This document shows positions 9,187-23,509 of a stretch of DNA of 64,000 bases, in pieces. The notes below the pieces were generated by a model. It was not told the DNA's origin. It saw nothing but the letters and a program-made list of their open reading frames with translations, and ran no database searches. The stretch is taken from contig DASUEU010000027.1 of assembly GCA_036274895.1 (NCBI GenBank), forward strand, positions 136,883 through 200,882, in the 5' to 3' direction. Numbering within the stretch: the stretch's first letter is position 1; every line of letters starts with the position of its first letter. The position numbers were made by a program, and so were the translations under genes. Source of the DNA: Thermoanaerobaculia bacterium. GTDB taxonomy: Bacteria > Acidobacteriota > Thermoanaerobaculia > Multivoradales > SZUA-115.

Positions 9187-9912
9187 ATGGCTGAAGCGAA
9201 GAAGACCAATCCCTGGGTGTGGGTGGCTGCCGGCTGCGGGGGTGTCATCGTGCTGGGCGGCCTGGCGATCATGGGCCTCGGCTGGTGGGGGTTCAACAAG
9301 GCCAAGAGCTTCGAGCGCCAGCTCAAGGATCCGGTCGCCCGCGAAGCGAGCGTGCGCGAGATCCTGGGTGCGGACTCGCTACCGGATGGCTACCACGCCC
9401 ACATGGGCATGTCCCTGCTCGGCTTCATGAAGATGGCCATGCTCTCCGACCGCGAGCTTCCCGCGGGGGAGGATCCGGGCGGCAAGGTCCCTTTCGACGA
9501 GCGGGGCTTCTTCTACTTCGACATGATGGCCGGCAGCAAGAACGCCAAGAAAGTCGAAGACTTCATCGCCGGCCGGATCGGCGTCGAGGAGATGCTCGAG
9601 GACACCAATGTCAACCTCGACCTCGACGAGGGCGAGAAGATCGCCGAAGGTCCGGTGGCCATCGCCGGCGGCCAGGCGCGCTATGTGGCGCAGCGGGGTG
9701 GTGTGGGCATGGGCGTCAAGCGCCAGGACGACAGCCTCAACACCATGGTGCTGGTGGACTGCCCGGGCGATCGCCGCTTCCGCTTCGCCATCTGGTTCGG
9801 CCCCGACCCCAACCCCGACGCGCCCGCCGACCAGTTGGACCTGACCGGCACTCCCGCCGACCCGGCGGCGCTCGAGGCGTTCCTGGGGCATTTCCATCTC
9901 TGTGGGAGATAG
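9187..9912 (+). CDS. Hypothetical membrane-anchored protein
   Basis: N-terminal TM helix (WVWVAAGCGGVIVLGGLAIMGLGWW). No recognisable domain. Coding-like GC3. Confidence 0.5.
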   Translation: MAEAKKTNPWVWVAAGCGGVIVLGGLAIMGLGWWGFNKAKSFERQLKDPVAREASVREILGADSLPDGYHAHMGMSLLGFMKMAMLSDRELPAGEDPGGKVPFDERGFFYFDMMAGSKNAKKVEDFIAGRIGVEEMLEDTNVNLDLDEGEKIAEGPVAIAGGQARYVAQRGGVGMGVKRQDDSLNTMVLVDCPGDRRFRFAIWFGPDPNPDAPADQLDLTGTPADPAALEAFLGHFHLCGR

Positions 9913-10098: not shown

Positions 10099-10884
10099 AT
10101 GACCGTCCGCACTTACAACAACTACCTGAAGATCGACGAGCTTCTCTCCCTCCAGCAGCCGGTCTCGGAGGGGCCGGAGCATGACGAGATGCTGTTCATC
10201 GTCATCCACCAGGTCTACGAGCTCTGGTTCAAGCAGATCCTCTGGGAGTTCGACTGGCTGCGCGGCGCCCTCGAGGCCAATGAGCGGCCGCGGACGATGG
10301 CGACCCTCAAGCGCATCCTGACCATCCTGAAGACCCTGGTCGGGCAGATCGACGTCCTCGAGACCATGACGCCGGTGGACTTCAGCTCGTTCCGCTCACG
10401 CCTGGACTCGGCGAGCGGCTTCCAGTCGGTGCAGTTCCGTGAGGTGGAGTTGGTGCTGGGGCATCGCCGCGAAGGTCAGCTCGATCACGTGCCGGCGGGG
10501 GGGCCCGAGCGCGCCCGCCTCGAAACACGACTCCGCGAACGCACTGTCTACGACTCCTTCCTGCGCTTCCTAGCTGCCAATGGTCACCCGGTACCGGCCG
10601 AGGTGCTGGACCGGGACGTCACGCAGGCACCCGCCGAGGACCAGCGGGTGCGCGCGATTCTGGTGGGCATCTACCGCCGGGACCCCGCCCTGCGCGAGAC
10701 CTGCGAGCGCCTGGTGGACCTCGACGAGGGGATCCAGGAGTGGCGCTACCGCCACGTCAAAATGGTGCAGCGCACCATCGGCACCAAGCGGGGCACCGGC
10801 GGATCGGCGGGGGCCGAGTACCTGCGCAACACTCTCTTCCAGCCTCTCTTCCCCGACCTCTGGGCCATCCGCACCGAGCTTTGA
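10099..10884 (+). CDS. kynA: Tryptophan 2,3-dioxygenase
   Basis: YNNYLKIDELLSLQ N-terminal signature and overall TDO-like sequence, ~260 aa. Confidence 0.85.
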   Translation: MTVRTYNNYLKIDELLSLQQPVSEGPEHDEMLFIVIHQVYELWFKQILWEFDWLRGALEANERPRTMATLKRILTILKTLVGQIDVLETMTPVDFSSFRSRLDSASGFQSVQFREVELVLGHRREGQLDHVPAGGPERARLETRLRERTVYDSFLRFLAANGHPVPAEVLDRDVTQAPAEDQRVRAILVGIYRRDPALRETCERLVDLDEGIQEWRYRHVKMVQRTIGTKRGTGGSAGAEYLRNTLFQPLFPDLWAIRTEL

Positions 10885-10904
10885 AGCCACCGCGAGGGAA
10901 CCGC

Positions 10905-12101
10905 ATGGACCTGTCCCAGCTCCGCCAGTCCCCCAACGCCCTCGCCCCACACTACTCACGTTTCCGCGTCGCCGAGCGGCTGCTGCTCACCGGCCACTCC
11001 CATCAGGCCTGGCCGGACTGCGCTCGAGAGGGGCAGCTTCAAGCCTTCGACGAGGCCGCCGCCTACGTGGACGGCAAGTGGCCGCACGCCTTTGCCAAGG
11101 CCGAGCGGGTGGCCCGGGGTCTCGCCGAGCGGATTGTGGACCCGAGCGGCAGCTATGCCCTGGCGGACTCGACCCACAGCCTGCTCGTCAAGTGGCTTTC
11201 GGCCCTGCCGTGGCGGGAGCGGCGCCGCATCGTCACCACGGACGGGGAGTTCCATGCCTTGCGGCGGCAGCTGGCCCGGCTGGAGGAGGAGGGCATCGAG
11301 GTGGTGCGGGTGCCGTCGCGACCGAGCGATGGGATCGCCGAGGGCCTCGCCGCCGCCGTGGACGACCGCACGGCCGCAGTGATGGTCTCGGCCGTGCTGT
11401 TTCGCAGTGCCGAGATCGTGCCCGGTTTGGAGCGGGTGCTGGCCGCGGCGCAGCGGGTGGGCGCCGAGCTGATGATCGACGCCTACCACGTGCTCAACGT
11501 GGTGCCTTTCCCTCTCGCCGAGCTGGGGTTGGAGGACGCCTTCGTGGTCGGGGGTGGCTACAAGTACCTGCAGATCGGCGAGGGCAACGCCTTCCTGCGC
11601 GTGCCGCGGGGACGGGACCTGCGGCCGGTGTTCACCGGCTGGTTCGCGGAATTCGCGGCCCTGTCCAGCCATCACGATCCGCTGCGGGTGGCCTACGGCC
11701 CCGGCGCCTCCGCCTTCGGCGCCGCCACCTACGACCCGACCAGCCAGTACCGCGCCGCGGCGGTGTTCGACTTCTTCGACGAGCAGGGCTTGACCGTGCC
11801 CTTCCTGCGCCAGGTCAGCCAGCACCAGGTGGGGCTGCTCGCCCGCCTCTTCGACGATCTCGACCTGCCGCCGGGGCTGATCTCTCGCGAGCGGGACGTG
11901 CCGCTGGAGCGCATCGGCGGCTTCCTGGCCCTGACCTCGCCCCGGGCCGGGGAGATCTCCGCCGCCCTCGCCCGCCGCGGTGTGGCCACCGACTACCGCG
12001 ACACCACCCTCCGCCTCGGCCCCGCCCCCTACCTCTCCGACCGCCAGATCGAAGAGGCCATGGGGCTGCTGGGGGAGGCGGTGCGGGAGGTGGCGGGGTA
12101 A
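10905..12101 (+). CDS. kynU: Kynureninase (PLP-dependent)
   Basis: LTGHSHQ and GGGYKYLQ.GEGNAFL motifs characteristic of kynureninase; RBS before the ATG at 10905. The longer six-frame ORF starting at 10740 is an out-of-frame extension. Confidence 0.8.
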   Translation: MDLSQLRQSPNALAPHYSRFRVAERLLLTGHSHQAWPDCAREGQLQAFDEAAAYVDGKWPHAFAKAERVARGLAERIVDPSGSYALADSTHSLLVKWLSALPWRERRRIVTTDGEFHALRRQLARLEEEGIEVVRVPSRPSDGIAEGLAAAVDDRTAAVMVSAVLFRSAEIVPGLERVLAAAQRVGAELMIDAYHVLNVVPFPLAELGLEDAFVVGGGYKYLQIGEGNAFLRVPRGRDLRPVFTGWFAEFAALSSHHDPLRVAYGPGASAFGAATYDPTSQYRAAAVFDFFDEQGLTVPFLRQVSQHQVGLLARLFDDLDLPPGLISRERDVPLERIGGFLALTSPRAGEISAALARRGVATDYRDTTLRLGPAPYLSDRQIEEAMGLLGEAVREVAG

Positions 12102-13815: not shown

Positions 13816-15337
13816 CTACTTTCCGATCCTCGCCCACCACTCCTTGGGCATCAGGTCGATGGGCAGGATGTAGCCGAGGTGGGAGTAGCCTTCGGTGTCC
13901 TCGACGGACGCGGTGGGGACGCCGATCAGGCGGAAGCTGCCGTCCAAGGCCGCGCCGCCGGAGTTGCCGGAGGCGATCTCGGCGTCGGTCTTGAGCACCA
14001 CACCGTGGCCGGTGGTGTCGAAGCCGCTGATCACCCCCCGGGTCAGGGTCACACTGGCCCGGCTGCCCAGGCCGCCGACGCTCGGGAAGCCCACGATGGT
14101 GATCGGCTCGCCCATGCGCAGGTTGCCGGGGTGGCCGAGCTCCAGGGCCGGGAAGCGGTAGCCGGCGGGCAGGGGCTGGCCATAGAAGCCGCTCTCGATC
14201 TTGACCAGGGCGAGGTCGAGGTCCTTGTCGTGGAGCTTGACGCTGCCCCGGAACATCTCCAGGGTGGGCCGGCGGGGGTCCAGGCAGAGGCCGATCACCA
14301 GCTCGCCGGGGGCGAGCAGGTTGCCGGCGTCGTCCTCGACCACGTGGTAGTTGGTGAGCACCCAGCCGTCGGGGGAGACCAGCGTGCCGCTGCCGGTCGC
14401 AGTCTCGGTCAAGATCTCGACGGTGCCGAGCAGGGCGCGGTCGAGCCCGTCGGTGGGGGCGCGCAAGGTCGGGATGGCCAGCAGCTCGGGCGGCGGCGTG
14501 GCCTCGAACCGCGCGTGCACGGTGAAGCCCACCGGATCCAGCTCGAAGGGGTCGAAGACGTTGACGTACCAGGTGCCGGCGGCCAAGGGAGGATCGGTCG
14601 AACGGTCGATCAGCAGCGTCTCGCGCCCCCGCACGCTCTCGGCCACCAGATCGGTGGGCTCGCGCTCGAAGATCGGCCGGCCGCGACGCGCGATCAGGTC
14701 GAGGTCGCCGTAGACGTCGTCGAGGTCGATGCGCAGCACGCGGGCCGTGGAGGGCACCTCGATGCGGAAGGTGCGGAACCAGCCGCTCTCGGGAGTGGTC
14801 TGGCTGGTGATCGGCTGGCCCGGGGCGAGAGGGCCGTCCACCCGGGCCTGGATGATCTCCGCGGTGAGGGTGAACGGCAGCTCGCGCGCCCGCTTCTTGC
14901 CGATGCGCGGCTCGCTCTCGAGGTTGTAGACCACGTCGATGTAGTAGACGCCGGGAGCAAGCGGCGGGTCGTTGGCGCGGGAGATGCGCAGGGTCTCGTT
15001 GTAGAGGTCGGAGATCGCTTCGTGCTCGGCGTCTTCCTCGTAGTCGAGGATCGGCGCGCCGTGGCGGGCGAAGAGGTCGAGGTCCACCGGCGAGCCGTCC
15101 AGGCGCAGGGTCAGCACCATGGCGTTCTCCGGCACGGTCACTCGAAAGCTCGCCCAGCGCTGCTCCCCCCAATCGATCACTCCGGCGGCGGGCCGGCCGA
15201 CCTCCAGGAAGGGACCGAGGTCCACCTCGGGGGTGGTGCCGCCAGCGCCTTCCTCCTCTTGGCCCCGGGCGAGCGCCGGCGCGAGCAGGCAGAGGGCGAC
15301 CAAGGCCCGGACGGCGCAGCGGCGTGCGGCGTTCACG
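13816..15337 (-). CDS. Secreted trypsin-like serine protease (S1 family) with two N-terminal PPC (pre-peptidase C-terminal) domains
   Basis: Signal peptide RRCAVRALVALCLLAPALA; two DLDL(F/I)ARxG PPC motifs; C-terminal TGSGTLV...NYHVV, DLALVK and GNSGGA catalytic triad context. GTG start inferred. Confidence 0.75.
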
Positions 15338-16478
15338 GCATCCCCCCGGCGACGATCAGGCCGCGGTCGGCGAGGGCTCTGGCGAAGCTCGGATCCCGGC
15401 GCCAGAGGCTCTCGGAACGCACCTTCTCGCTGCGCGTCATGGCCTTGAGGGCGAAAGCGAGGGGGTCGAGGTCGAGATCCTGGCGGGCGTTCTCGAACCA
15501 CTCGAGGCTGGCCTGGGCCGCCTGCTGGTAGGTCTCGACGCTCGGCCGGCGCTGCTCCTCGTAGGCGGCGAAGGCAGCGGGCAGGCCGGGCTCGCTGGCC
15601 AGGGCGTCGGCCAGGGCCACGGCGTCCTCCATGGCCAGCTTGGTGCCCGAGCCGATCGAGAAGTGAGCCGTGTGGACCGCGTCACCCAGCAGCACCGCCT
15701 TGCCGTGGCTCCACCGGCGGCAGCGCACGGTGGCGAACTGGATCCACCGCGACAGGTTCGAGAGCAGAGAGTAACCGTCGAGATCCTCCTCGAAGACCCC
15801 CTCCAGGAAGGCCCGGCTCTCCTCCTCGGCGGCCCGGTCGAGGCCGGCGGCGCGCCAGCTCTGCTCGTCGCACTCGACGATGAAGGTCGAGAGGTCCGGG
15901 CTGAACTTGTAGGAGTGGGCGATGTAGAGGCCCTGCGCCCGCTCGCGGAAGGTCAGGGTGAGGGCGTGGAAGAGGCGGTGGGTGCCGTACCAGACGTAGC
16001 GGTTCCGGCGGAAGTCGAGCTCCGGTCCGAAAGCGTCCCTCCAGGTCTCCCGCACCAGGCTTTTCACGCCGTCGGCGCCGACCAGCAGGTCGTGGGGGGG
16101 CAGCTCGTCGAGGCTGGTGATCTCGACCCCGAAGTGCAGGTCCACACCCAGCTCGCGGCATCGCTCCTGGAGCACCTGGAGGAGGGAGATGCGGGCGATG
16201 CCGGCGAAGCGGTTGCCGCCGATCGTCACCTTCTCGCCGCGATGGACGATCTCCAGGTTCTCCCAAGTGACCAGCCGCTCCTCGATCCGCTCCGAGACCA
16301 CGGGGTCGGGGGTCTCGAGCCCGGCCAGGGTCTTGCCCGAGAAGACCACGCCCCAGCCGAAGGTGCTGGAGGCGGGGTTGCGTTCGAGCACGGTCACCGA
16401 GCTGGCCGGCTCTCGCCCCTTGATCAGGGCCGCCAGGTAGAGCCCCGCCGGGCCTCCACCGAGGATCACGACCTTCAT
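15333..16478 (-). CDS. Class A FAD-dependent monooxygenase (salicylate-hydroxylase-like; candidate aryl-CoA monooxygenase component)
   Basis: MKVVILGGGPAGLY Rossmann fingerprint, DGVKSLVR and GDAVHTAH.GSG motifs. Its start overlaps the upstream OYE gene stop as ATGA. Confidence 0.8.
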   Translation of the reverse strand: MKVVILGGGPAGLYLAALIKGREPASSVTVLERNPASSTFGWGVVFSGKTLAGLETPDPVVSERIEERLVTWENLEIVHRGEKVTIGGNRFAGIARISLLQVLQERCRELGVDLHFGVEITSLDELPPHDLLVGADGVKSLVRETWRDAFGPELDFRRNRYVWYGTHRLFHALTLTFRERAQGLYIAHSYKFSPDLSTFIVECDEQSWRAAGLDRAAEEESRAFLEGVFEEDLDGYSLLSNLSRWIQFATVRCRRWSHGKAVLLGDAVHTAHFSIGSGTKLAMEDAVALADALASEPGLPAAFAAYEEQRRPSVETYQQAAQASLEWFENARQDLDLDPLAFALKAMTRSEKVRSESLWRRDPSFARALADRGLIVAGGMP

Positions 16479-17941
16479 GCGGGACCTCCTGCCGAAGGCT
16501 GCCAGGGGGGAGCGAGCAGGCGGCGCCGGCCGTCGGCGGCACGGGCGACCCCCGGCGCGTCGAGATCGAGCCGGTCCCACAGCTGGCAGGTCACCTGCTT
16601 GTGCACCTGGTCGAGACCCTCGCAGTAGTTGCAGTAAACACAGCGGCGGATCTCCTCCCCCGCCCCCAGCCTCATCTTGCGCCACCAGTCGGGGTCGGCC
16701 AGGCTCTGGCGGGCGGCCCCGACGACATCGGCGTCCCCCCGGGTGAGCAGGTCCTCGGCCTGGCGGAAGCTGGTGATGCCGCCGGTGGCGACGATGGGCG
16801 TCGAGAGGCCGGTCTCGCGCAGGGCGGCGCGGATCTGCCGGGCCGCGCCGAGGTTGCGGCCGAACGGCCCGCGGGCGTCGGAGAGCGCCGTGGGCATGCA
16901 CTCGTAGCCGGAGGGGCCGGTGTAGGGGTAGGCCGCCCAGCCCACTCGCGGCTGCTTGGCGTCCTCGAACTTGCCGCCGCGCGACAGCGACAGGAAGTCC
17001 ATCCCCGAGCGCGCCAGCTCGACCCCGAAAAAGCAGGCGTCCGCGAGCGTCGAGCCGTCATCGATCGCCTCGTCGGCGAGGTAGCGGCAGCCGACCGGAT
17101 AGCCCTCGCCGACTCGCTCGCGCACCCGGCGGAACACCTCGACGGGTAGGCGGATGCGGCCCTCGCGGGAGCCACCGTAGCCGTCGCTCCGGGAGTTGCG
17201 GGCGGAGAGGAAGGAGGCCATGGTGTAGGCGTGGGCGTAGTGCAGCTCCACGCCGTCGAAGCCCGCCTGCTGTGCCCGCACGGCTGCGGCCGCGAAGAGG
17301 TCGGGGAGCACCCGCGGCAGCTCGGCGATCTGGGGCAGGTGGAGGTCCGTGACCCGTTCGCGGTAGCCGAAGCGCAGGGCCTCGAGCTCGCGCTCGTCGA
17401 GCACGGCGGGCAGCTCGGCATCGGCCAAGGCGAGCAGGGCCTCGCGGACCGCCTCGTCGCCGAGACCGTGGCCGAAGAAGGCCCGGTGCCGGTCGGTCAG
17501 GGTGAGGAAGCGGCGAAAGAACTTCTCGGGCTCGGGGCGGCGGCGGATGGCGAGGAAGTCGATGATCTGGATCAGCAGCCGGGTGCGCCCGCCGCTCGCC
17601 CTCTTGACCGTCGCCACCAGCTCGGCGAGGCCGGGCAGGAAGCGGTCATGGCCGATGCGCAGCAGGGGGCCGCTCGGCACGTCGCGGATGCCGGTGGCCT
17701 CGACCACGAGGGCGCCGGGCTGGCCCTGGGCGAAGCGCTCGTACCAGGCCAGCACGTCGTCCGTCACGAAGCCATCCTCGGTGGAGCGCCAGGGCACCAT
17801 GGCCGGCACCCAGGTGCGCTCGGCGAGGGCCAACGGTCCCAACGAGATCGGCGAGAAGAGCCGCGAGCGCTCGGCCTCCTCCGCGCTCGGCCAGTCTCCC
17901 GGCGGACTCTCGTGCCTGATGCGCTCCGGCGGTTTCCACAT
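16475..17941 (-). CDS. Old-yellow-enzyme family FMN oxidoreductase with a 4Fe-4S motif (2,4-dienoyl-CoA-reductase-like N-domain)
   Basis: TIM-barrel OYE motifs (HYAHAY, GGSREGRIRL); C-terminal CVYC.YC...(11)...C cluster-binding signature (C-x2-C-x2-C-x11-C) as in FadH. Confidence 0.75.
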   Translation of the reverse strand: MWKPPERIRHESPPGDWPSAEEAERSRLFSPISLGPLALAERTWVPAMVPWRSTEDGFVTDDVLAWYERFAQGQPGALVVEATGIRDVPSGPLLRIGHDRFLPGLAELVATVKRASGGRTRLLIQIIDFLAIRRRPEPEKFFRRFLTLTDRHRAFFGHGLGDEAVREALLALADAELPAVLDERELEALRFGYRERVTDLHLPQIAELPRVLPDLFAAAAVRAQQAGFDGVELHYAHAYTMASFLSARNSRSDGYGGSREGRIRLPVEVFRRVRERVGEGYPVGCRYLADEAIDDGSTLADACFFGVELARSGMDFLSLSRGGKFEDAKQPRVGWAAYPYTGPSGYECMPTALSDARGPFGRNLGAARQIRAALRETGLSTPIVATGGITSFRQAEDLLTRGDADVVGAARQSLADPDWWRKMRLGAGEEIRRCVYCNYCEGLDQVHKQVTCQLWDRLDLDAPGVARAADGRRRLLAPPWQPSAGGPA

Positions 17942-17971: not shown

Positions 17972-19168
17972 TCAGGCCCCTTGGGAGCGCTTGAGCAGCT
18001 CACGGGCAATCACCAGGTGCTGGATCTCGGTGGTGCCCTCGTAGATGCGCAGGGCGCGGATCGAGCGATAGAGGCGGTCGACGGGGTGGTCGACCAGCAC
18101 CCCGCGGCCGCCCAGGATCTGCACCGCGCCGTCGACCACCCGCTGGGCCGCCTCCGCGGCGTAGGACTTGGCCATCGCCGCCTCGTAGGTGGCGCGGGGG
18201 GCACCGGAGGCGATCTCCCACGCCGCCCGGTAGGTCAAGAGGCGAGCCGCGGCCAGCTCGGTGGCCATCTCGGCGAGGCGGGCCTGCACCAGCTGGTGCT
18301 CGGCCAGGGGCCGGCCGAACTGCCGCCGCCCCCGGGCGTGGGCGAGGGCCTCCTCGAGGGCTCGGGCCGCCATGCCGCAGGCGGCCGCCGCCACCGTGGG
18401 GCGCAGCCGATCGAGGGTCGCGAGGCCGAGCTTGAAGCCCTCCCCCGGTCCTCCCAGCACGGCCTCGGCGCCGACCCGGCAGCCCCGAAAAGCGAGCTCC
18501 CCGAGCGGGTGCGGGGAGGAGAGCACCTGGGCGCGGACGAAGGTGAGGCCCGGGTCCCCGGCCTCGACCAGGAAGGCGCCGATGCCCTTGGCGCCGGCTC
18601 CCGGCGCGGTCTGGGCGAAGACCACGTAATAGTCGGCCACGCCGGCGTTGGTGATCAGGTGCTTGCCACCCTCGAGCACGTAGCCGTCGCCGTCGGCATG
18701 GGCGAGGGTGGTCATCGACGCCACGTCCGAGCCGGCCTCGGGCTCGGTCATGGCGAAGGCGGCCATGGCCTCCCCGGCCGCCACCCGCCCCAGCCAGCGG
18801 GCGCGGGCGGCGTCGTTGCCGGACAGGGTGAGGGGCATCGAGCCCAAGCCCTGGAGGGCGAAGACGGAGTCCGCCAGGGGCGAGGCAGCAGCCAGGGCCT
18901 CACGGATCAGGCACAGGGCCAGGGCGTCCGGAGCTCCGGCAACGCCGCCCCAGGCCTCGGGGATCGCCCACCGGCAGAGCCCGGCTCTCCCCAGCTCGCC
19001 GAGCAACTCCCGGGCCTCGACCCGCGCCGCCTCGTCCGTCAGCGCCTCCGGCCGCCCGGCCAGCCGCTCCCTGGCGAACGTCTCGGCCTCCCGGGCCAGG
19101 TCCAGGTGGCGCTCCGCGAGGAAGGGCTTGAGCAGAGCCAGGTCGTGCCAGCCCATCCCGGCGCTCAT
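17972..19168 (-). CDS. Acyl-CoA dehydrogenase
   Basis: 398 aa with ACAD-family architecture (…GGRGVLVDHPVDRLYR…). Confidence 0.8.
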   Translation of the reverse strand: MSAGMGWHDLALLKPFLAERHLDLAREAETFARERLAGRPEALTDEAARVEARELLGELGRAGLCRWAIPEAWGGVAGAPDALALCLIREALAAASPLADSVFALQGLGSMPLTLSGNDAARARWLGRVAAGEAMAAFAMTEPEAGSDVASMTTLAHADGDGYVLEGGKHLITNAGVADYYVVFAQTAPGAGAKGIGAFLVEAGDPGLTFVRAQVLSSPHPLGELAFRGCRVGAEAVLGGPGEGFKLGLATLDRLRPTVAAAACGMAARALEEALAHARGRRQFGRPLAEHQLVQARLAEMATELAAARLLTYRAAWEIASGAPRATYEAAMAKSYAAEAAQRVVDGAVQILGGRGVLVDHPVDRLYRSIRALRIYEGTTEIQHLVIARELLKRSQGA

Positions 19169-19965
19169 CGGAAGACCGCCTTGCGCTTGTCGACGAAGGC
19201 GCGGTGGGCCTCCTTGAAGTTGGGGTCGAGCATGCAGGCGGCCTGGATCTCGGTCTCGGCGGCCAATGCGCTCTCGAAGTCCATCGTCTGCTCCCTCAGC
19301 ACCATCATCTTGGTCACCGAGAGGCCGAACGACGGCCCGCGGGCGAGCCTCTCCGCCCAGGCGCGGGCTTCGGTCAGGGCTTCGCCGTCCGCCACCACCC
19401 GGTTGTAGAGGCCCATGGCGCAGGCGTCGCGGGCCGAGACGAAGTCCCCGAACATCAGCAGCTCCATGGCCCGGCCCTGGCCGACCAGCCTGGGCAGTAG
19501 CCAGGAGGCGCCCATGTCCGCACCCGAGAGCCCGACCTTGGTGAACAGGAAGGCGATCTTGGCGCTCTCGGCGGCCACGCGCAGGTCGCAGGCCGAGGCG
19601 ATCACCGCGCCGGCCCCGGCGACGGTGCCGTTCAAGGCGCCGAGGATCGGCCGGCGGCAGCGCAGCATGGCGAGGATCAGGGCGCCGGTCGCGCGGGTGA
19701 ACTCCAGCAGGCCCTGGAAATCACGCTCGAGCAGGGGCCCGATGATGTCCTCGACGTCGCCTCCCGAGCAGAAGGCCCGGCCCTCGCCGGTGAGCACGAT
19801 GGCGCGCACCCCCTCCTCTCCGTCGAGGGCGCGGAAGGTCTCCGCGAGCTCGCGGTAGACCTCGAAAGTCAGGGCGTTCAAGCGCTCGGGGCGCGAGAGG
19901 GTGATGGTGGCCACGCCGGTGTCGGCGTCATGGTGGTAGCGGAAGCTCTCGGGCGCGATGGGCAT
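19165..19965 (-). CDS. Enoyl-CoA hydratase/isomerase (crotonase family)
   Basis: ITLSRPERLNAL...AFCSGGDV oxyanion-hole motifs; overlaps the downstream ACAD by 4 bp. Confidence 0.85.
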   Translation of the reverse strand: MPIAPESFRYHHDADTGVATITLSRPERLNALTFEVYRELAETFRALDGEEGVRAIVLTGEGRAFCSGGDVEDIIGPLLERDFQGLLEFTRATGALILAMLRCRRPILGALNGTVAGAGAVIASACDLRVAAESAKIAFLFTKVGLSGADMGASWLLPRLVGQGRAMELLMFGDFVSARDACAMGLYNRVVADGEALTEARAWAERLARGPSFGLSVTKMMVLREQTMDFESALAAETEIQAACMLDPNFKEAHRAFVDKRKAVFR

Positions 19966-20019: not shown

Positions 20020-20436
20020 TCAGCGACTCTGTGGCTCAGGCACCACGGCCGTGGCTTCGATCTCGACCTTGGCCTCGGGCACTACCAGGGCCGCCACCTG
20101 GAGCAAGGCCATGGCCGGGTAACAGCGGCCCATCACCCGGCGGTAGGCCTCGCCCACGGCCGAAAGATCCGCCAGATACTCGGCGCACGAGGTGACGTAG
20201 AAGTTGATGCGGCCGATGTGCTCCGGCCCACCCCCGGCCGCTCGCACCACCGCGAGCACGTTGCCGAGGGCTGCTTCGAACTGTTCGATGAAGGTGGTGC
20301 CGCGCAGCTGGCCCCCGGCGTCCCAGGCGATCTGCCCGGCGACGAAGAGCAGGCGCCCTCCGGGCGGCGCCAGCATGCCGTTCGAGTAGCCCCGTGGCGC
20401 GCCCAGGGACTCGGGGTTGATCGGGGTCATGGCCGC
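20020..20436 (-). CDS. RidA/YjgF/TdcF family enamine/imine deaminase
   Basis: ~140-aa C-terminal portion of the long ORF 20020..21036. The start could be at 20436 or 20448. The upstream 600 nt of that ORF is an artefact overlapping the SDR gene. Confidence 0.7.
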   Translation of the reverse strand, partial: AAMTPINPESLGAPRGYSNGMLAPPGGRLLFVAGQIAWDAGGQLRGTTFIEQFEAALGNVLAVVRAAGGGPEHIGRINFYVTSCAEYLADLSAVGEAYRRVMGRCYPAMALLQVAALVVPEAKVEIEATAVVPEPQSR

Positions 20437-20438
20437 GC

Positions 20439-21218
20439 TCATGGGATGTAACCTCCGCCGTCGAGCACCCAGGCCTGACCGTTGACCCCCTTGGCCCGCG
20501 GATCGCACAGGCAGCGCACCAGATAGGCCACCTCCTCGGGCTCGAAGATCCGGCCCTGGGGGCTCATCTTGGCCAGGCGGGTGCGGGCGTCCTGGTCCGA
20601 AAGCCCCGTCTTCTCGCGGATCTTGGCCACCGACTGCTCGGTCATCGGGGTGGCGACGTAGCCGGGGCAGACGGCGTTGACCGTCACCCCCTTGGCGGCG
20701 AGCTCCAGGGCGAGCGAGCGGGTCAGACCGATGACGGCATGCTTGGTGGCGGTGTAGGCCGAGATGTAGGGAGCCCCGGCCAGGCCGGCCACCGAGGCGA
20801 CGTTGACCACCCGCCCCCAGCCGCGGCTCGCCATCTCCGGGGCGAACTCCTTGGCGCAGAGGAAGACCCCGTGGACGTTGACCTGCATCAGCCTCTCGAG
20901 CTCGGACAGCTCGAGCAGCTTGAGTGGTGCCGAGGAGGCGATGCCGGCGTTGTTGACCAGGATGTCGACCTGGCCGAAGGCCTCGCGGGCGGCGCGGCCG
21001 AGGGCTTCCACCTCGTCGGGCAGGGTGACGTCGCACCGCGCGGCGGCGGCCCGGTAGCCCTGGCTCACCAGGCTCGCGGCCACCGCCTCGACGTCGGAGC
21101 GGGAACGGGCGGCGACCATCACGGCCGCCCCCTCGCGGGCCAGCTCGGCCGCCACCGCGGCGCCGATGCCTCGGCCGCCGCCGGTGACGACGGCCGTCTT
21201 GCCGGAAAGCGCGCTCAT
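20439..21218 (-). CDS. SDR family oxidoreductase (3-hydroxyacyl-CoA dehydrogenase/FabG-like)
   Basis: TGGGRGIG cofactor motif, NNAG, and the S...Y..K catalytic motif (YTATK). Confidence 0.85.
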   Translation of the reverse strand: MSALSGKTAVVTGGGRGIGAAVAAELAREGAAVMVAARSRSDVEAVAASLVSQGYRAAAARCDVTLPDEVEALGRAAREAFGQVDILVNNAGIASSAPLKLLELSELERLMQVNVHGVFLCAKEFAPEMASRGWGRVVNVASVAGLAGAPYISAYTATKHAVIGLTRSLALELAAKGVTVNAVCPGYVATPMTEQSVAKIREKTGLSDQDARTRLAKMSPQGRIFEPEEVAYLVRCLCDPRAKGVNGQAWVLDGGGYIP

Positions 21219-21997
21219 CCTTCTCCTCCCAGGGCTGCGATCACCGCATCCGCGACGATGCCGCCCAGCTCATGGATCGTGGCGCGACCCTCTTCGGCGG
21301 TGGCCGCCGCCGGGTCGCCGAAATAGGCCATGGGTCCTCCGGCCTCGGCGAAGGTGCGCTGGCCGGCGCGGATCGCCTCCGAGAGGGAGCGGGGGTTGGC
21401 GGCGAGCTGCCGCGCCCGGCCCTGGCGCACCCGCTCGGGCTGGGCGGCGAGGACGATCGAGGTCTCGTATTGGCCGGCGTGGCAGGCCCCGGAGCGCAGC
21501 TCCTCGGTCAGCCGCAGGGCCCAGGGCTTCCTGGCGACGTTGGGGAAGACCACCGGCACGCTGCCTCGGGACCGGGCGGCGACCACCGCAGCTTCGAGCG
21601 CCGCCAGGTGGGCCGGGTCGAGGTGAGCGTTGGCCAGGGCCAGGGCGCGGGCTCCCTGTCGGGTCCAGGCCAGGGCGAGGTCGGCCACCAGGGCCGTGAC
21701 CGTCTCGGCCGTCACCGACAGAGTGCCGGGAAAGGCATCTGCGAAGGGGGCCGCGACGTAGTCGAGGCCCGGGAGCACCACGGCCGTCCAGCCCGCCCGG
21801 GCCAGGATCTCGGCCCCGGCGCTGGCCATGGCCCCGGCGATGATGCCGTCGGTGAGCAGGGAGAGGTGGGGACCGTGGGCCTCGACGGCGCCCACCGGCA
21901 GGATGCCCACCAGCCGCTCCCTGGGGAGGGCTGCGAATTCCGTCCAGGTCAGGGCGGCCAGCTCGAGCGCCGCGCCGCCGGTCTCGGGTTGGCTCAT
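21215..21997 (-). CDS. Creatininase-family amidohydrolase
   Basis: ILPVGAVEAHGPHL and CHAGQYETS motifs of the creatinine amidohydrolase family. Confidence 0.7.
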   Translation of the reverse strand: MSQPETGGAALELAALTWTEFAALPRERLVGILPVGAVEAHGPHLSLLTDGIIAGAMASAGAEILARAGWTAVVLPGLDYVAAPFADAFPGTLSVTAETVTALVADLALAWTRQGARALALANAHLDPAHLAALEAAVVAARSRGSVPVVFPNVARKPWALRLTEELRSGACHAGQYETSIVLAAQPERVRQGRARQLAANPRSLSEAIRAGQRTFAEAGGPMAYFGDPAAATAEEGRATIHELGGIVADAVIAALGGEG

Positions 21998-22731
21998 CGC
22001 GCTCGGGGCTCACTGGCGACGAAGACGGCGGCGATCGAGCCCACTCCCTCGAGCCGCGCCAGGGAGACCGGCTCGAAGCGGTAGGAGGCGGCGCTCACCC
22101 CGGCGGGACCGGGAGCGGCGAAGTCCGGGCCGACGCCCGGCGGCGGCAGCTGCCCGAAGAGCTCGAGACGGCCGAAGCGGGAGCGCAGCAGATCCTCCCA
22201 CTCCCAGAGGTAGAGATTGTTGGGTTGGAAGCTCGAAGCGCGGTGCCGCTCGAGGGTGGTCTCGTCGATCACGGGTGGCACCGAGGCGATCAGGCGACCT
22301 TCTGGGGTGAGGTGCGAGGCCGCCCAGGACACCGCCCGGTCCAAGTCGAGGAGCTGAGCGAGCACGTTGCCGGCGACGATCAGCTCGAAGGAGCCGTTCG
22401 GGCCCCCGGCGCTGTCGAAGGAGCGACAGGAGAAGGTGATCCGGGGGTCGCTGTAACGCCGCCGGGCGAAGGCGACGGACTTGGGGTCGGGATCGAGGGC
22501 CGCCACCGACCGCGCCCCGGCGCGCAGCAGCTCGGCGGCGCCGTAGCCGGTGCCGCAGCCGAGGTCACAGACTGTTCGTCCCTCGGCGAAGCGGCCGGCG
22601 AAGAGATAGAAGCCGAGGTGGGCCTCGAAGAGATCATTGGCCACCACCGGCGCCACCGCCCGGCTTCCCGGCGGCAGGCCGTAGCGCAAGCGGGCCAGAC
22701 GGTTCCTGACACGGCGAAGAAGCGAGGCCAT
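21994..22731 (-). CDS. Class I SAM-dependent methyltransferase
   Basis: DLGCGTGY motif I; AGGAGGG RBS before the ATG at 22731; overlaps the creatininase start by 4 bp. Confidence 0.7.
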   Translation of the reverse strand: MASLLRRVRNRLARLRYGLPPGSRAVAPVVANDLFEAHLGFYLFAGRFAEGRTVCDLGCGTGYGAAELLRAGARSVAALDPDPKSVAFARRRYSDPRITFSCRSFDSAGGPNGSFELIVAGNVLAQLLDLDRAVSWAASHLTPEGRLIASVPPVIDETTLERHRASSFQPNNLYLWEWEDLLRSRFGRLELFGQLPPPGVGPDFAAPGPAGVSAASYRFEPVSLARLEGVGSIAAVFVASEPRAR

Positions 22732-22821
22732 TTCCCTCCTCGGAGCAGCGGGCAGTGAGTCGCGCTCGCGGCGAAACGCGGCGATTCTATCGCCCGGAAG
22801 CCGCGTGTTAATCTTCGCGCC

Positions 22822-23376
22822 ATGCTCCGAGAAGAGCCCGAGATGCTGGTGCCGCGGGCACCGGAAGGCGAGAGGCTCAACCTGCTCTTGCCGTCCCCGA
22901 TCGGCGAGCTCGGGCTGACCCTGCGCGGCACCGTGGTGACGGCCCTCACCATCGCGCCCACCGACGCCCTGCGCGAACGCTACACGCCGTTCACCGAACT
23001 CGATGGCGACGAGTTCCTGGAAGAGGTGGTGGGGCGTTTTTCCGAGTACTTCGCGGGCGCCCGCACCTCCTTGGAGCTCGAGCACGACCTGTCGGATTTC
23101 GAGCTCTCGAGCTTCGCGCGGCGGGTGTTCCGGGAGACGGTGAAGATCCCCTACGGCCGCACCCGCACCTACAACAAGGTGGCCGCCCTGGCCGGGCGCC
23201 CGGAGGCCTACCGGCAAGTGCTCGCCATCCTGGTCGCCAACCCGATCCCGATCCTCATCCCGTGCCACCGGGTGGTGACCCACAAGTCGGGGATCGGCAG
23301 CTTCGTCGGCGGCCAGGACCGCAAGCGCTGGTTGATGGCGATGGAAAAAGAGGCGCTCAAGGAGCAGGACCGGTAG
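22822..23376 (+). CDS. ogt: Methylated-DNA-protein-cysteine methyltransferase
   Basis: IPCHRVV active-site motif and DNA-binding HTH (TYNKVAALAG). Confidence 0.85.
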   Translation: MLREEPEMLVPRAPEGERLNLLLPSPIGELGLTLRGTVVTALTIAPTDALRERYTPFTELDGDEFLEEVVGRFSEYFAGARTSLELEHDLSDFELSSFARRVFRETVKIPYGRTRTYNKVAALAGRPEAYRQVLAILVANPIPILIPCHRVVTHKSGIGSFVGGQDRKRWLMAMEKEALKEQDR

Positions 23377-23509
23377 GGGCGCGGTCTCCGCGCCCCGCGG
23401 CGATCTGCGGCATCCGGTGCAGGGGCCGACCAATGTGTCGGCCCTCCCCGCCCCGGAGGGCGGACACGCTGGTCCGCCCCTACGACCGGAGGCGCACGGC
23501 CGTGCGCCC

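Follow-up and report, generated by a model that had tools for sequence, protein, structure and literature searches.

The 64,000-nucleotide stretch of DNA considered here at its full length (the window) comes from contig DASUEU010000027.1 of a Thermoanaerobaculia bacterium (Acidobacteriota). It carries two adjacent minus-strand genes, one for a flavoprotein of the Old Yellow Enzyme (OYE) family, termed OYE-485, and one for a class A FAD monooxygenase (MO). An earlier sequence-only reading had seen in the two a candidate split, reverse-order form of 2-aminobenzoyl-CoA monooxygenase/reductase (ACMR), an enzyme known in fused form. That interpretation holds only in part, and most of its specific mechanistic claims are not upheld. 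The aryl-CoA hydroxylase/reductase logic is realised here in two genes, with an OYE of a different and uncharacterised subclass. On balance, it appears to belong to an aerobic catabolic set for tryptophan and anthranilate that runs via anthraniloyl-CoA, with OYE-485 as the in-trans ene-reductase of a ring enone CoA ester of that pathway, a combined reading that the sequence evidence modestly favours. Homology and conserved gene context give good support to anthraniloyl-CoA catabolism as the pathway. OYE-485 most likely supplies ene-reduction in trans on a ring intermediate.

The pathway would lead from tryptophan to anthranilate and on to anthraniloyl-CoA, because the window encodes a tryptophan 2,3-dioxygenase (TDO), a kynureninase-like enzyme, an aryl-CoA ligase, an enoyl-CoA hydratase/isomerase-family protein (ECH), an acyl-CoA dehydrogenase (ACAD), a short-chain dehydrogenase/reductase (SDR) and a RidA-family protein. 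This gene content matches the pathway of Azoarcus evansii as summarised in PMC4539516 and PMC3534580. In the proposed scheme, in which every substrate named is putative, TDO, the kynureninase-like enzyme and the ligase would make anthranilate and then anthraniloyl-CoA. Homology and context suggest that the self-sufficient MO most likely hydroxylates this ester at C5 with NAD(P)H and O2, and that the most likely role of OYE-485 is to reduce a C=C bond in a ring enone CoA ester. Where the MO stands alone, the most economical scheme would let OYE-485 act on what the MO releases, the 5-oxo-dienyl tautomer (or 5-hydroxyanthraniloyl-CoA), and yield 2-amino-5-oxocyclohex-1-ene-1-carbonyl-CoA. Deamination, opening and oxidation of this product could then fall to RidA, the hydratase-family enzyme, the dehydrogenase and the SDR, and the presence of RidA would fit hydrolysis of the enamine product of the ACMR reaction. 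In-trans ene-reduction is the simplest mechanism for OYE-485, since it is the only OYE beside an MO that lacks a reductase domain of its own. No second, ACMR-type OYE occurs in the 64-kb window, whose sole OYE is encoded directly upstream of the MO. The downstream pathway is lacking in the literature, which leaves room for an extra enzyme.

Both genes were delimited from the listing of open reading frames (ORFs) together with a frame analysis of third-position G+C, the window having a G+C content of about 70%. The features of the pair are as follows:

16475..17941, minus strand: OYE-485, a 488-amino acid (aa) Old Yellow Enzyme-family flavoprotein (PF00724, 132 bits)
17225..17242, minus strand: codons of the HxxHxY motif H234-Y-A-H237-A-Y239 (His/His pair and Tyr proton donor), aligned with TsER and the Ferrovum OYE
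16586..16642, minus strand: Cys motif C434-x2-C437-x2-C440-x11-C452, CVYCNYCEGLDQVHKQVTC, in the C-terminal loop of the OYE
16475..16478, minus strand: ATGA overlap of OYE stop and MO start, recurring at four other operon junctions
15333..16478, minus strand: stand-alone class A FAD monooxygenase of 381 aa, putative anthraniloyl-CoA 5-monooxygenase, corresponding to the N-terminal half of PRK08255

The OYE frame runs from 17941 to 16475 and its protein starts with MWKPPERI, an N-terminus that is conserved in the family. The MO begins at the ATG at 16478 and ends at 15333, and its protein starts with MKVVILGGGPAG. At the junction, GGAGGTCCCGCATGAAGG, the MO start codon (16478-16476) overlaps the OYE stop codon TGA (16477-16475), and a Shine-Dalgarno-like GGAGG lies 6 nt upstream of the MO start. 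Pfam places Oxidored_FMN in the first gene and FAD_binding_3 in the second. The ORFs, the junction sequence and these domains thus confirm the location of the pair and its ATGA overlap as first described. Both proteins are 100% identical to database entries from a Thermoanaerobaculia (Acidobacteriota) metagenome-assembled genome (MAG), which NCBI names “NADH:flavin oxidoreductase” and “FAD-dependent monooxygenase”, respectively.

A literal fission of ACMR would make the OYE the detached reductase half, with a canonical [4Fe-4S] cluster and bound to the MO in an obligate stoichiometric complex. This is improbable, even though the MO has no OYE domain and the only OYE of the window is adjacent to it and overlaps it. 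Further points in its favour are that the stand-alone MOs of the window subclade adjoin an OYE (16 loci) and that the window OYE has all four Cys aligned with the ligands of FadH and trimethylamine dehydrogenase (TMADH). Seen from the MO side of this subclade, an OYE of 490-493 aa adjoins in two of three look-ups, the third giving a 262-aa PF00724 gene call. The overlap itself carries little weight, as ATGA joins the genes at five of the seven operon junctions (methyltransferase/creatininase-like, creatininase-like/SDR, SDR/RidA, ECH/ACAD and OYE/MO), and a GTGA overlap couples the MO to the next gene downstream. ATGA is therefore the default junction of this operon and not specific evidence of the stoichiometric complex that had been read from it.

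The MO matches the NCBIfam model PRK08255 (NF006101, bifunctional salicylyl-CoA 5-hydroxylase/oxidoreductase) over positions 1-380 of 768 with an E-value of 3.7e-135; its 452 bits lie below the whole-protein cut-off of 1078. The second-best model is VioD at 261 bits, where the family cut-off of 620 (NF053547) is not reached, and the best match in the PDB is likewise VioD (3c4a, 228 bits, full length). Homologues of 373-412 aa are 55-87% identical to the MO, and many carry the JGI name “anthraniloyl-CoA monooxygenase”. A search of 1.8 billion cluster representatives returned fused proteins of about 750-800 aa, with N-domains 44-51% identical to the MO, as well as stand-alone relatives of about 360-390 aa. 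The C-terminus of the MO (residue 381) falls at the point where the fused proteins run into a linker and then an OYE domain, which carries ELHxAHGY and has no Cys-rich tail. The homology is at orthologue level, which bears out the identification of the MO as a counterpart of the monooxygenase half of enzymes of the ACMR/salicylyl-CoA hydroxylase type. The domain alignment to PRK08255-type proteins holds for this half only, since the OYE is not orthologous to the reductase half.

A neighbour-joining tree built from 168 MO domains puts the stand-alone MOs in one deep clade apart from the fused proteins, with only four stand-alone exceptions placed among the latter. This clade contains the window MO, every MO found beside OYE-485 and deeper types that are paired with or fused to a CoA ligase. 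Its depth and separateness indicate that the stand-alone state of the MO is old and not the outcome of a recent fission. An origin of the MO by recent splitting or truncation of the fused gene carried by sister Thermoanaerobaculia was rejected on the same ground. P0294 (921 aa) is a natural fusion of a stand-alone-type MO and an AMP-forming CoA ligase, which independently ties the stand-alone clade to predicted aryl-CoA substrates. The same MO and CoA-ligase genes overlap in locus L087 (P0260), and in P0344 (819 aa) a 290-aa FAH-like N-terminal region precedes a stand-alone-type MO.

OYE-485 and its cysteine motif

OYE-485 consists of an FMN-binding TIM barrel, two insertions and a Cys-rich C-terminal tail. 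PF00724 is the sole domain found by the Pfam scan, in which NAD(P)H/FAD-binding and ADP-binding domains were absent, and the chain ends about 35 residues past the last Cys. The insertions lie at about residues 128-200 and 326-362. The AlphaFold2 model has a pLDDT of 90, with low confidence only at residues 441-451, and is unstructured past residue 425. Its Foldseek neighbours are the thermophilic-like OYEs, NCR and FadH. H234 and Y239 do not vary among 119 family members, and H237 is conserved in at least 90%. C348, within the second insertion, is also invariant in this set, and C285 is at least 90% conserved. With the ene-reductase HxxHxY site conserved, a TMADH-like amine dehydrogenase role for OYE-485 is considered unlikely.

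The 120 closest homologues from the cluster search are at least 70% identical to the window protein and 481-545 aa long. At 59-71% identity, relatives occur in at least 587 species genomes (one genome per species), spanning Acidobacteriota, Gamma-, Beta- and Alphaproteobacteria, Myxococcota, Planctomycetota, Gemmatimonadota and Rokubacteria. Identity across six or more phyla is 60-77%. With the reductase domain of the fused ACMR-type protein P0291, the OYE shares only 34% identity over 205 aa, which is no nearer than generic OYEs. Among NCBIfam models, the C-terminal half of PRK08255 scores 112 bits against 162 for BaiCD, and the Fe-S-type models (BaiCD and the mycofactocin OYE) score higher. 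The low identity and the better scores with Fe-S-type models mean that the OYE is not an orthologue of the ACMR reductase domain. OYE-485 is thus a distinct and strongly conserved subfamily and not a detached reductase half. The notion of a split enzyme fails on this comparison, on the coexistence of OYE-485 with complete fused genes (see below) and on the separate clade of the stand-alone MOs, all of which argue against fission.

No fusion of OYE-485 and MO of the Rosetta-stone kind was found, the long ORFs in L051 and L057 being artefacts of upstream extension. In a Myxococcales MAG (L048, 9992-12442), the OYE-485 frame runs on for about 300 aa into an unrelated Rossmann-fold domain, KTIGFIGQGWIG, and this extension is either a real fusion or an artefact of assembly or frameshift.

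The Cys loop aligns residue for residue with the 4Fe-4S loops of FadH (1ps9), TMADH (1djn), HisD (6l6j) and histamine dehydrogenase. The FadH-type motif C-x2-C-x2-C-x11-C noted in the sequence-only reading is therefore present in the window protein and matches known cluster ligands. Across the 119 sequences, C434, C440 and C452 are invariant. Position 437 is Thr in 76, Ser in 40, Cys in two, Arg in one and Val in one of the 120 closest homologues. In the 76 readable genome loci it is Thr in 71, Ser in three, Ile in one and Lys in one, with no Cys. Within both sets, the four-Cys version is confined to the window OYE and its 91%-identical relative. With Thr or Ser as the second residue in 116 of 120 homologues and Cys in none of the 76 loci, the canonical four-Cys site does not hold as a feature of the family, which also removes one of the supports for fission.

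Alignment indicates that the family feature is a three-Cys site, C-x5-C-x11-C. In ferredoxins, loss of the second Cys of CxxCxxC...C is the usual signature of a [3Fe-4S] cluster. The three-Cys motif accordingly reads as suggestive of [3Fe-4S], or of [4Fe-4S] with incomplete Cys ligation. The window OYE appears to have regained the fourth Cys, so that a canonical FadH-type 4Fe-4S site would be, at best, a peculiarity of its lineage.

OYE-485 loci in other genomes

Eighty OYE-485 loci were compared, with the window proteins and the C-terminal domain of the fused enzyme used in tblastn. A stand-alone MO adjoins OYE-485 in 16 of them, mostly from Pyrinomonadaceae and Blastocatellia. The two genes lie on one strand as OYE then MO in L023, L083 and the window, as MO then OYE in L018 and L079, and in convergent orientation in 12 loci. 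Gene order and orientation vary across loci, so “reverse order” does not serve as a defining trait. Most of the stand-alone loci, being convergent, do not co-translate the two genes, which is a further argument against fission. A 188-aa hypothetical gene found between MO and OYE in some Pyrinomonadaceae is absent from the window and not widely conserved. The aryl-CoA ligase gene is syntenic in 11 of the 16 loci.

A complete fused MO-OYE gene shares the cluster with OYE-485 in 13 of the 80 loci, including the closest Thermoanaerobaculia relatives (L001-L003), one member of the Gemmatimonadota and many Gammaproteobacteria. L002 and L009 keep the window order ECH-ACAD-OYE485-MO with an MO that has its own OYE domain, an arrangement hard to reconcile with fission, and L001 shows ACAD-OYE485-MO with a shorter left flank. 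The HxxHxY motif is intact in all 14 fused OYE domains from clusters that also hold OYE-485; the suggestion that these domains are degenerate and that OYE-485 is the true reductase everywhere was rejected on this count. Ten gammaproteobacterial loci with fused ACMR and OYE-485 (L005, L011, L021, L024, L026, L038, L043, L056, L074 and L076) also hold an indolepyruvate:ferredoxin oxidoreductase-like pair (TPP_enzyme_C; POR plus DUF6537), and some such clusters add a Cyclase-family, kynurenine formamidase-like gene.

The commonest neighbours of OYE-485 are RidA (38 of the 80 loci by tblastn, 16 by ORF cluster), ACAD (about 35) and ECH (33), ahead of the MO (30). The gene set seen in the window is found again around OYE-485 in loci of Acidobacteriota, Gemmatimonadota and Gammaproteobacteria. 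The MO is out of reach in 48 loci, mostly from Myxococcota, Planctomycetota and Alphaproteobacteria; among the 46 loci whose two flanks each span at least 8 kb, this applies to 23. Some MO-less loci adjoin a CoA ligase and an ABC transporter.

Several of these observations weigh against in-trans ene-reduction by OYE-485 in an anthraniloyl-CoA pathway. The coexistence of OYE-485 with apparently functional fused ACMRs in 13 loci suggests that its conserved job may differ from ACMR ene-reduction. The MO is missing from half of the loci with ample flanks. The deeper stand-alone MOs have a CoA ligase as their partner and lack a nearby OYE, so that the MO does not need a reductase. The kynureninase assignment in the window is also weak. 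Finally, OYE-485 tracks ACAD, hydratase and RidA at least as closely as it tracks the MO, and this makes a distinct downstream step the main and serious alternative.

Under this alternative, OYE-485 would perform the same later step in all lineages, while the MO simply makes 5-hydroxyanthraniloyl-CoA; the two proteins would share a pathway without being functional partners. The step could be the reduction of a ring or ring-opened enoyl or enone CoA ester after deamination, or the rescue of 5-hydroxyanthraniloyl-CoA as an aromatic by-product. Coexistence with intact fused ACMRs and the neighbour counts, which place OYE-485 with the lower-pathway module, favour it. ACMR has moreover been reported to release 5-hydroxyanthraniloyl-CoA when NADH is limiting (PMC3534580), and the lower pathway is unresolved in the literature. 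In the stand-alone-MO lineages, however, no other nearby gene offers dearomatisation of the ring, it is chemically awkward for an acyl-CoA dehydrogenase and an ene-reductase to act on neighbouring steps, and the substrate cannot be given with any confidence. A distinct downstream step is thus judged a real possibility, if an unlikely one, and in-trans ene-reduction by OYE-485 is retained as the favoured account.

Genes for the alpha (and beta) subunit of a Rieske oxygenase directly flank OYE-485 in three of the 80 loci, L004 (8698-11377), L038 (10001-12827) and L039 (7741-13147). L038 also holds a fused ACMR, and in L039 a CoA ligase gene is adjacent as well; no reductase component was noticed at the three Rieske loci. 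OYE-485 may therefore partner with a second, unrelated type of oxygenase.

These loci bear on a further proposal, in which OYE-485 would be an electron-transfer module that passes electrons from NAD(P)H through FMN to Fe-S, giving single electrons to an oxygenase partner or exchanging them with electron-transferring flavoprotein (ETF) in the manner of TMADH. In addition to the Rieske genes, it draws on the resemblance of the OYE to the FMN/Fe-S half of FadH/TMADH-type enzymes without the FAD/NAD(P)H half, and on the ETF-dependent ACAD, named as the commonest neighbour. Class A monooxygenases, however, take NAD(P)H directly, the invariant Tyr239 and the His pair indicate genuine alkene reduction, the three-Cys site may be vestigial, and the Rieske adjacency is confined to those three loci. 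The proposal is accordingly very doubtful.

A related idea keeps the ene-reductase chemistry. OYE-485 would be a “half-FadH”, an FMN ene-reductase in which a three-Cys [3Fe-4S] or labile [4Fe-4S] cluster takes the place of the built-in NAD(P)H/FAD module and receives single electrons from another protein. This partner could be ETF that the adjacent ACAD has reduced, the FAD of the MO or a Rieske system, and reducing equivalents would be recycled within the pathway. This is a speculative variant that is judged rather unlikely.

Neighbouring genes of the window

The minus-strand operon has the order (methyltransferase)-creatininase-like-SDR-RidA-ECH-ACAD-OYE-MO, and the plus-strand genes for TDO, the kynureninase-like enzyme and the ligase are convergent to it. 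The neighbouring features are the following:

17972..19168, minus strand: acyl-CoA dehydrogenase (ACAD), 398 aa, with all three Pfam ACAD domains
19165..19965, minus strand: enoyl-CoA hydratase/isomerase family (ECH), 266 aa (PRK08258, 358 bits, cut-off 330)
20020..20442, minus strand: RidA/YjgF-family enamine/imine deaminase, 140 aa (NCBIfam TIGR00004; homologous cluster PF01042)
20439..21218, minus strand: short-chain dehydrogenase/reductase (SDR), 259 aa (Pfam, NCBIfam)
21215..21997, minus strand: creatininase-family amidohydrolase, 260 aa (PF02633), with homologues in L002, L003, L018 and L078
12238..13809, plus strand: aryl-CoA ligase of the benzoate-CoA ligase family, putative anthranilate-CoA ligase (TIGR02262, 466 bits, cut-off 375)
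10881..12101, plus strand: kynureninase-like pyridoxal phosphate enzyme (Pfam KYNU_C, 27.6 bits, cut-off 27; a weak match)
10099..10884, plus strand: tryptophan 2,3-dioxygenase (TDO; PF03301, E-value 3e-66; TIGR03036, 273 bits, below cut-off)

The closest NCBIfam models of the ACAD are acryloyl-CoA reductase and cyclohexane-1-carbonyl-CoA dehydrogenase. The RidA gene is concealed within a spurious 338-aa ORF (20020..21036) and overlaps the SDR stop by ATGA. Homologues of the kynureninase-like protein in L084 have Aminotran_5 and KYNU_C domains. A canonical kynurenine formamidase is absent from the 64-kb window, and the creatininase-family protein could conceivably serve in this role.

Downstream of the MO, a gene for a secreted trypsin-like protease with a PPC domain and the signal peptide VNAARRCAVRALVALCLLAPALA occupies 13816-15336 on the minus strand. 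Its GTG start overlaps the MO stop (GTGA), and it may be co-transcribed with the catabolic operon. At the other end, the sole sigma-70-like promoter match of the region (22784-22811, minus strand) lies within a 479-aa “methyltransferase” ORF (21994-23433, minus strand), which also overlaps an ogt-like gene on the plus strand (22822-23376). The methyltransferase gene is probably much shorter than its ORF, and the operon may start at the promoter-like site. Beyond this site (22811-22784), the promoter and terminator scan was uninformative. Upstream of TDO, a 241-aa ORF with coding-like codon bias (9187-9912, plus strand) matches nothing in Pfam or NCBIfam and lacks homologues in the 80 related loci.

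Significance and known systems

The aerobic anthraniloyl-CoA route for the breakdown of tryptophan and anthranilate has been known since about 1990, with the steps after ACMR still unassigned. A search of the literature in the searchable library found no paper on a pair of stand-alone anthraniloyl-CoA monooxygenase and OYE-485, or on the OYE-485 family; the papers found cover only the fused enzyme. GapMind omits the anthraniloyl-CoA pathway for lack of knowledge. The conserved module SDR-RidA-hydratase-ACAD-OYE-485, which accompanies either fused ACMR or a stand-alone MO in soil and sediment phyla (Acidobacteriota, Gemmatimonadota, Proteobacteria, Myxococcota and Planctomycetota), gives concrete candidate genes for these missing steps. 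If the “half-FadH” proposal were true, OYE-485 together with RidA, hydratase, ACAD and SDR would define the unresolved lower part of the pathway. Work on this large family, with its at least 587 species and its unusual cofactor motif, could reveal how an OYE-fold enzyme operates with an Fe-S site when it has no NAD(P)H/FAD domain of its own. A new ene-reductase subclass with CoA esters as substrates may be of practical interest, since enzymes of this kind see wide use in biocatalysis.

ACMR (AbmA of Azoarcus evansii; EC 1.14.13.40) and salicylyl-CoA 5-hydroxylase resemble the window MO in their N-terminal FAD monooxygenase domain. The aryl-CoA ligase and beta-oxidation-like genes of the abm clusters (PMC4539516) also stand beside the window MO and in the related loci. 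Unlike ACMR, the window MO has no fused C-terminal OYE domain, and the OYE that adjoins it belongs to another subfamily with a Cys-rich tail. The closest solved structure to the MO is that of VioD, an enzyme of violacein biosynthesis. The MO falls far below the VioD cut-off and, unlike VioD, is surrounded by genes of catabolic CoA-ester processing; vio genes are absent from its neighbourhood.

For OYE-485, the best sequence and fold matches of the barrel are the thermophilic-like (class III) OYEs, such as YqjM, TsER, XenA and the Ferrovum OYE (8pun), with which it shares the His/His/Tyr residues. It is about 120-140 residues longer than these enzymes, owing to the MWKPPERI extension, the two insertions and the Cys-rich tail. 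Classical and thermophilic-like OYEs are single-domain proteins of about 340-370 aa without a metal site, whereas OYE-485 has 488 aa and an invariant three-Cys tail. An OYE barrel followed by a Cys loop, as in OYE-485, is found in FadH (1ps9), TMADH, histamine dehydrogenase, HisD and 2-naphthoyl-CoA reductase. The FadH/TMADH group comprises flavoproteins of the OYE fold with FMN, a [4Fe-4S] cluster and an FAD/ADP domain, and several of them act on CoA esters. In contrast to this group, OYE-485 lacks the FAD/NAD(P)H or ADP domains and has Thr or Ser at the position of the second Cys ligand in about 97% of its 120 closest homologues, while HxxHxY is kept.

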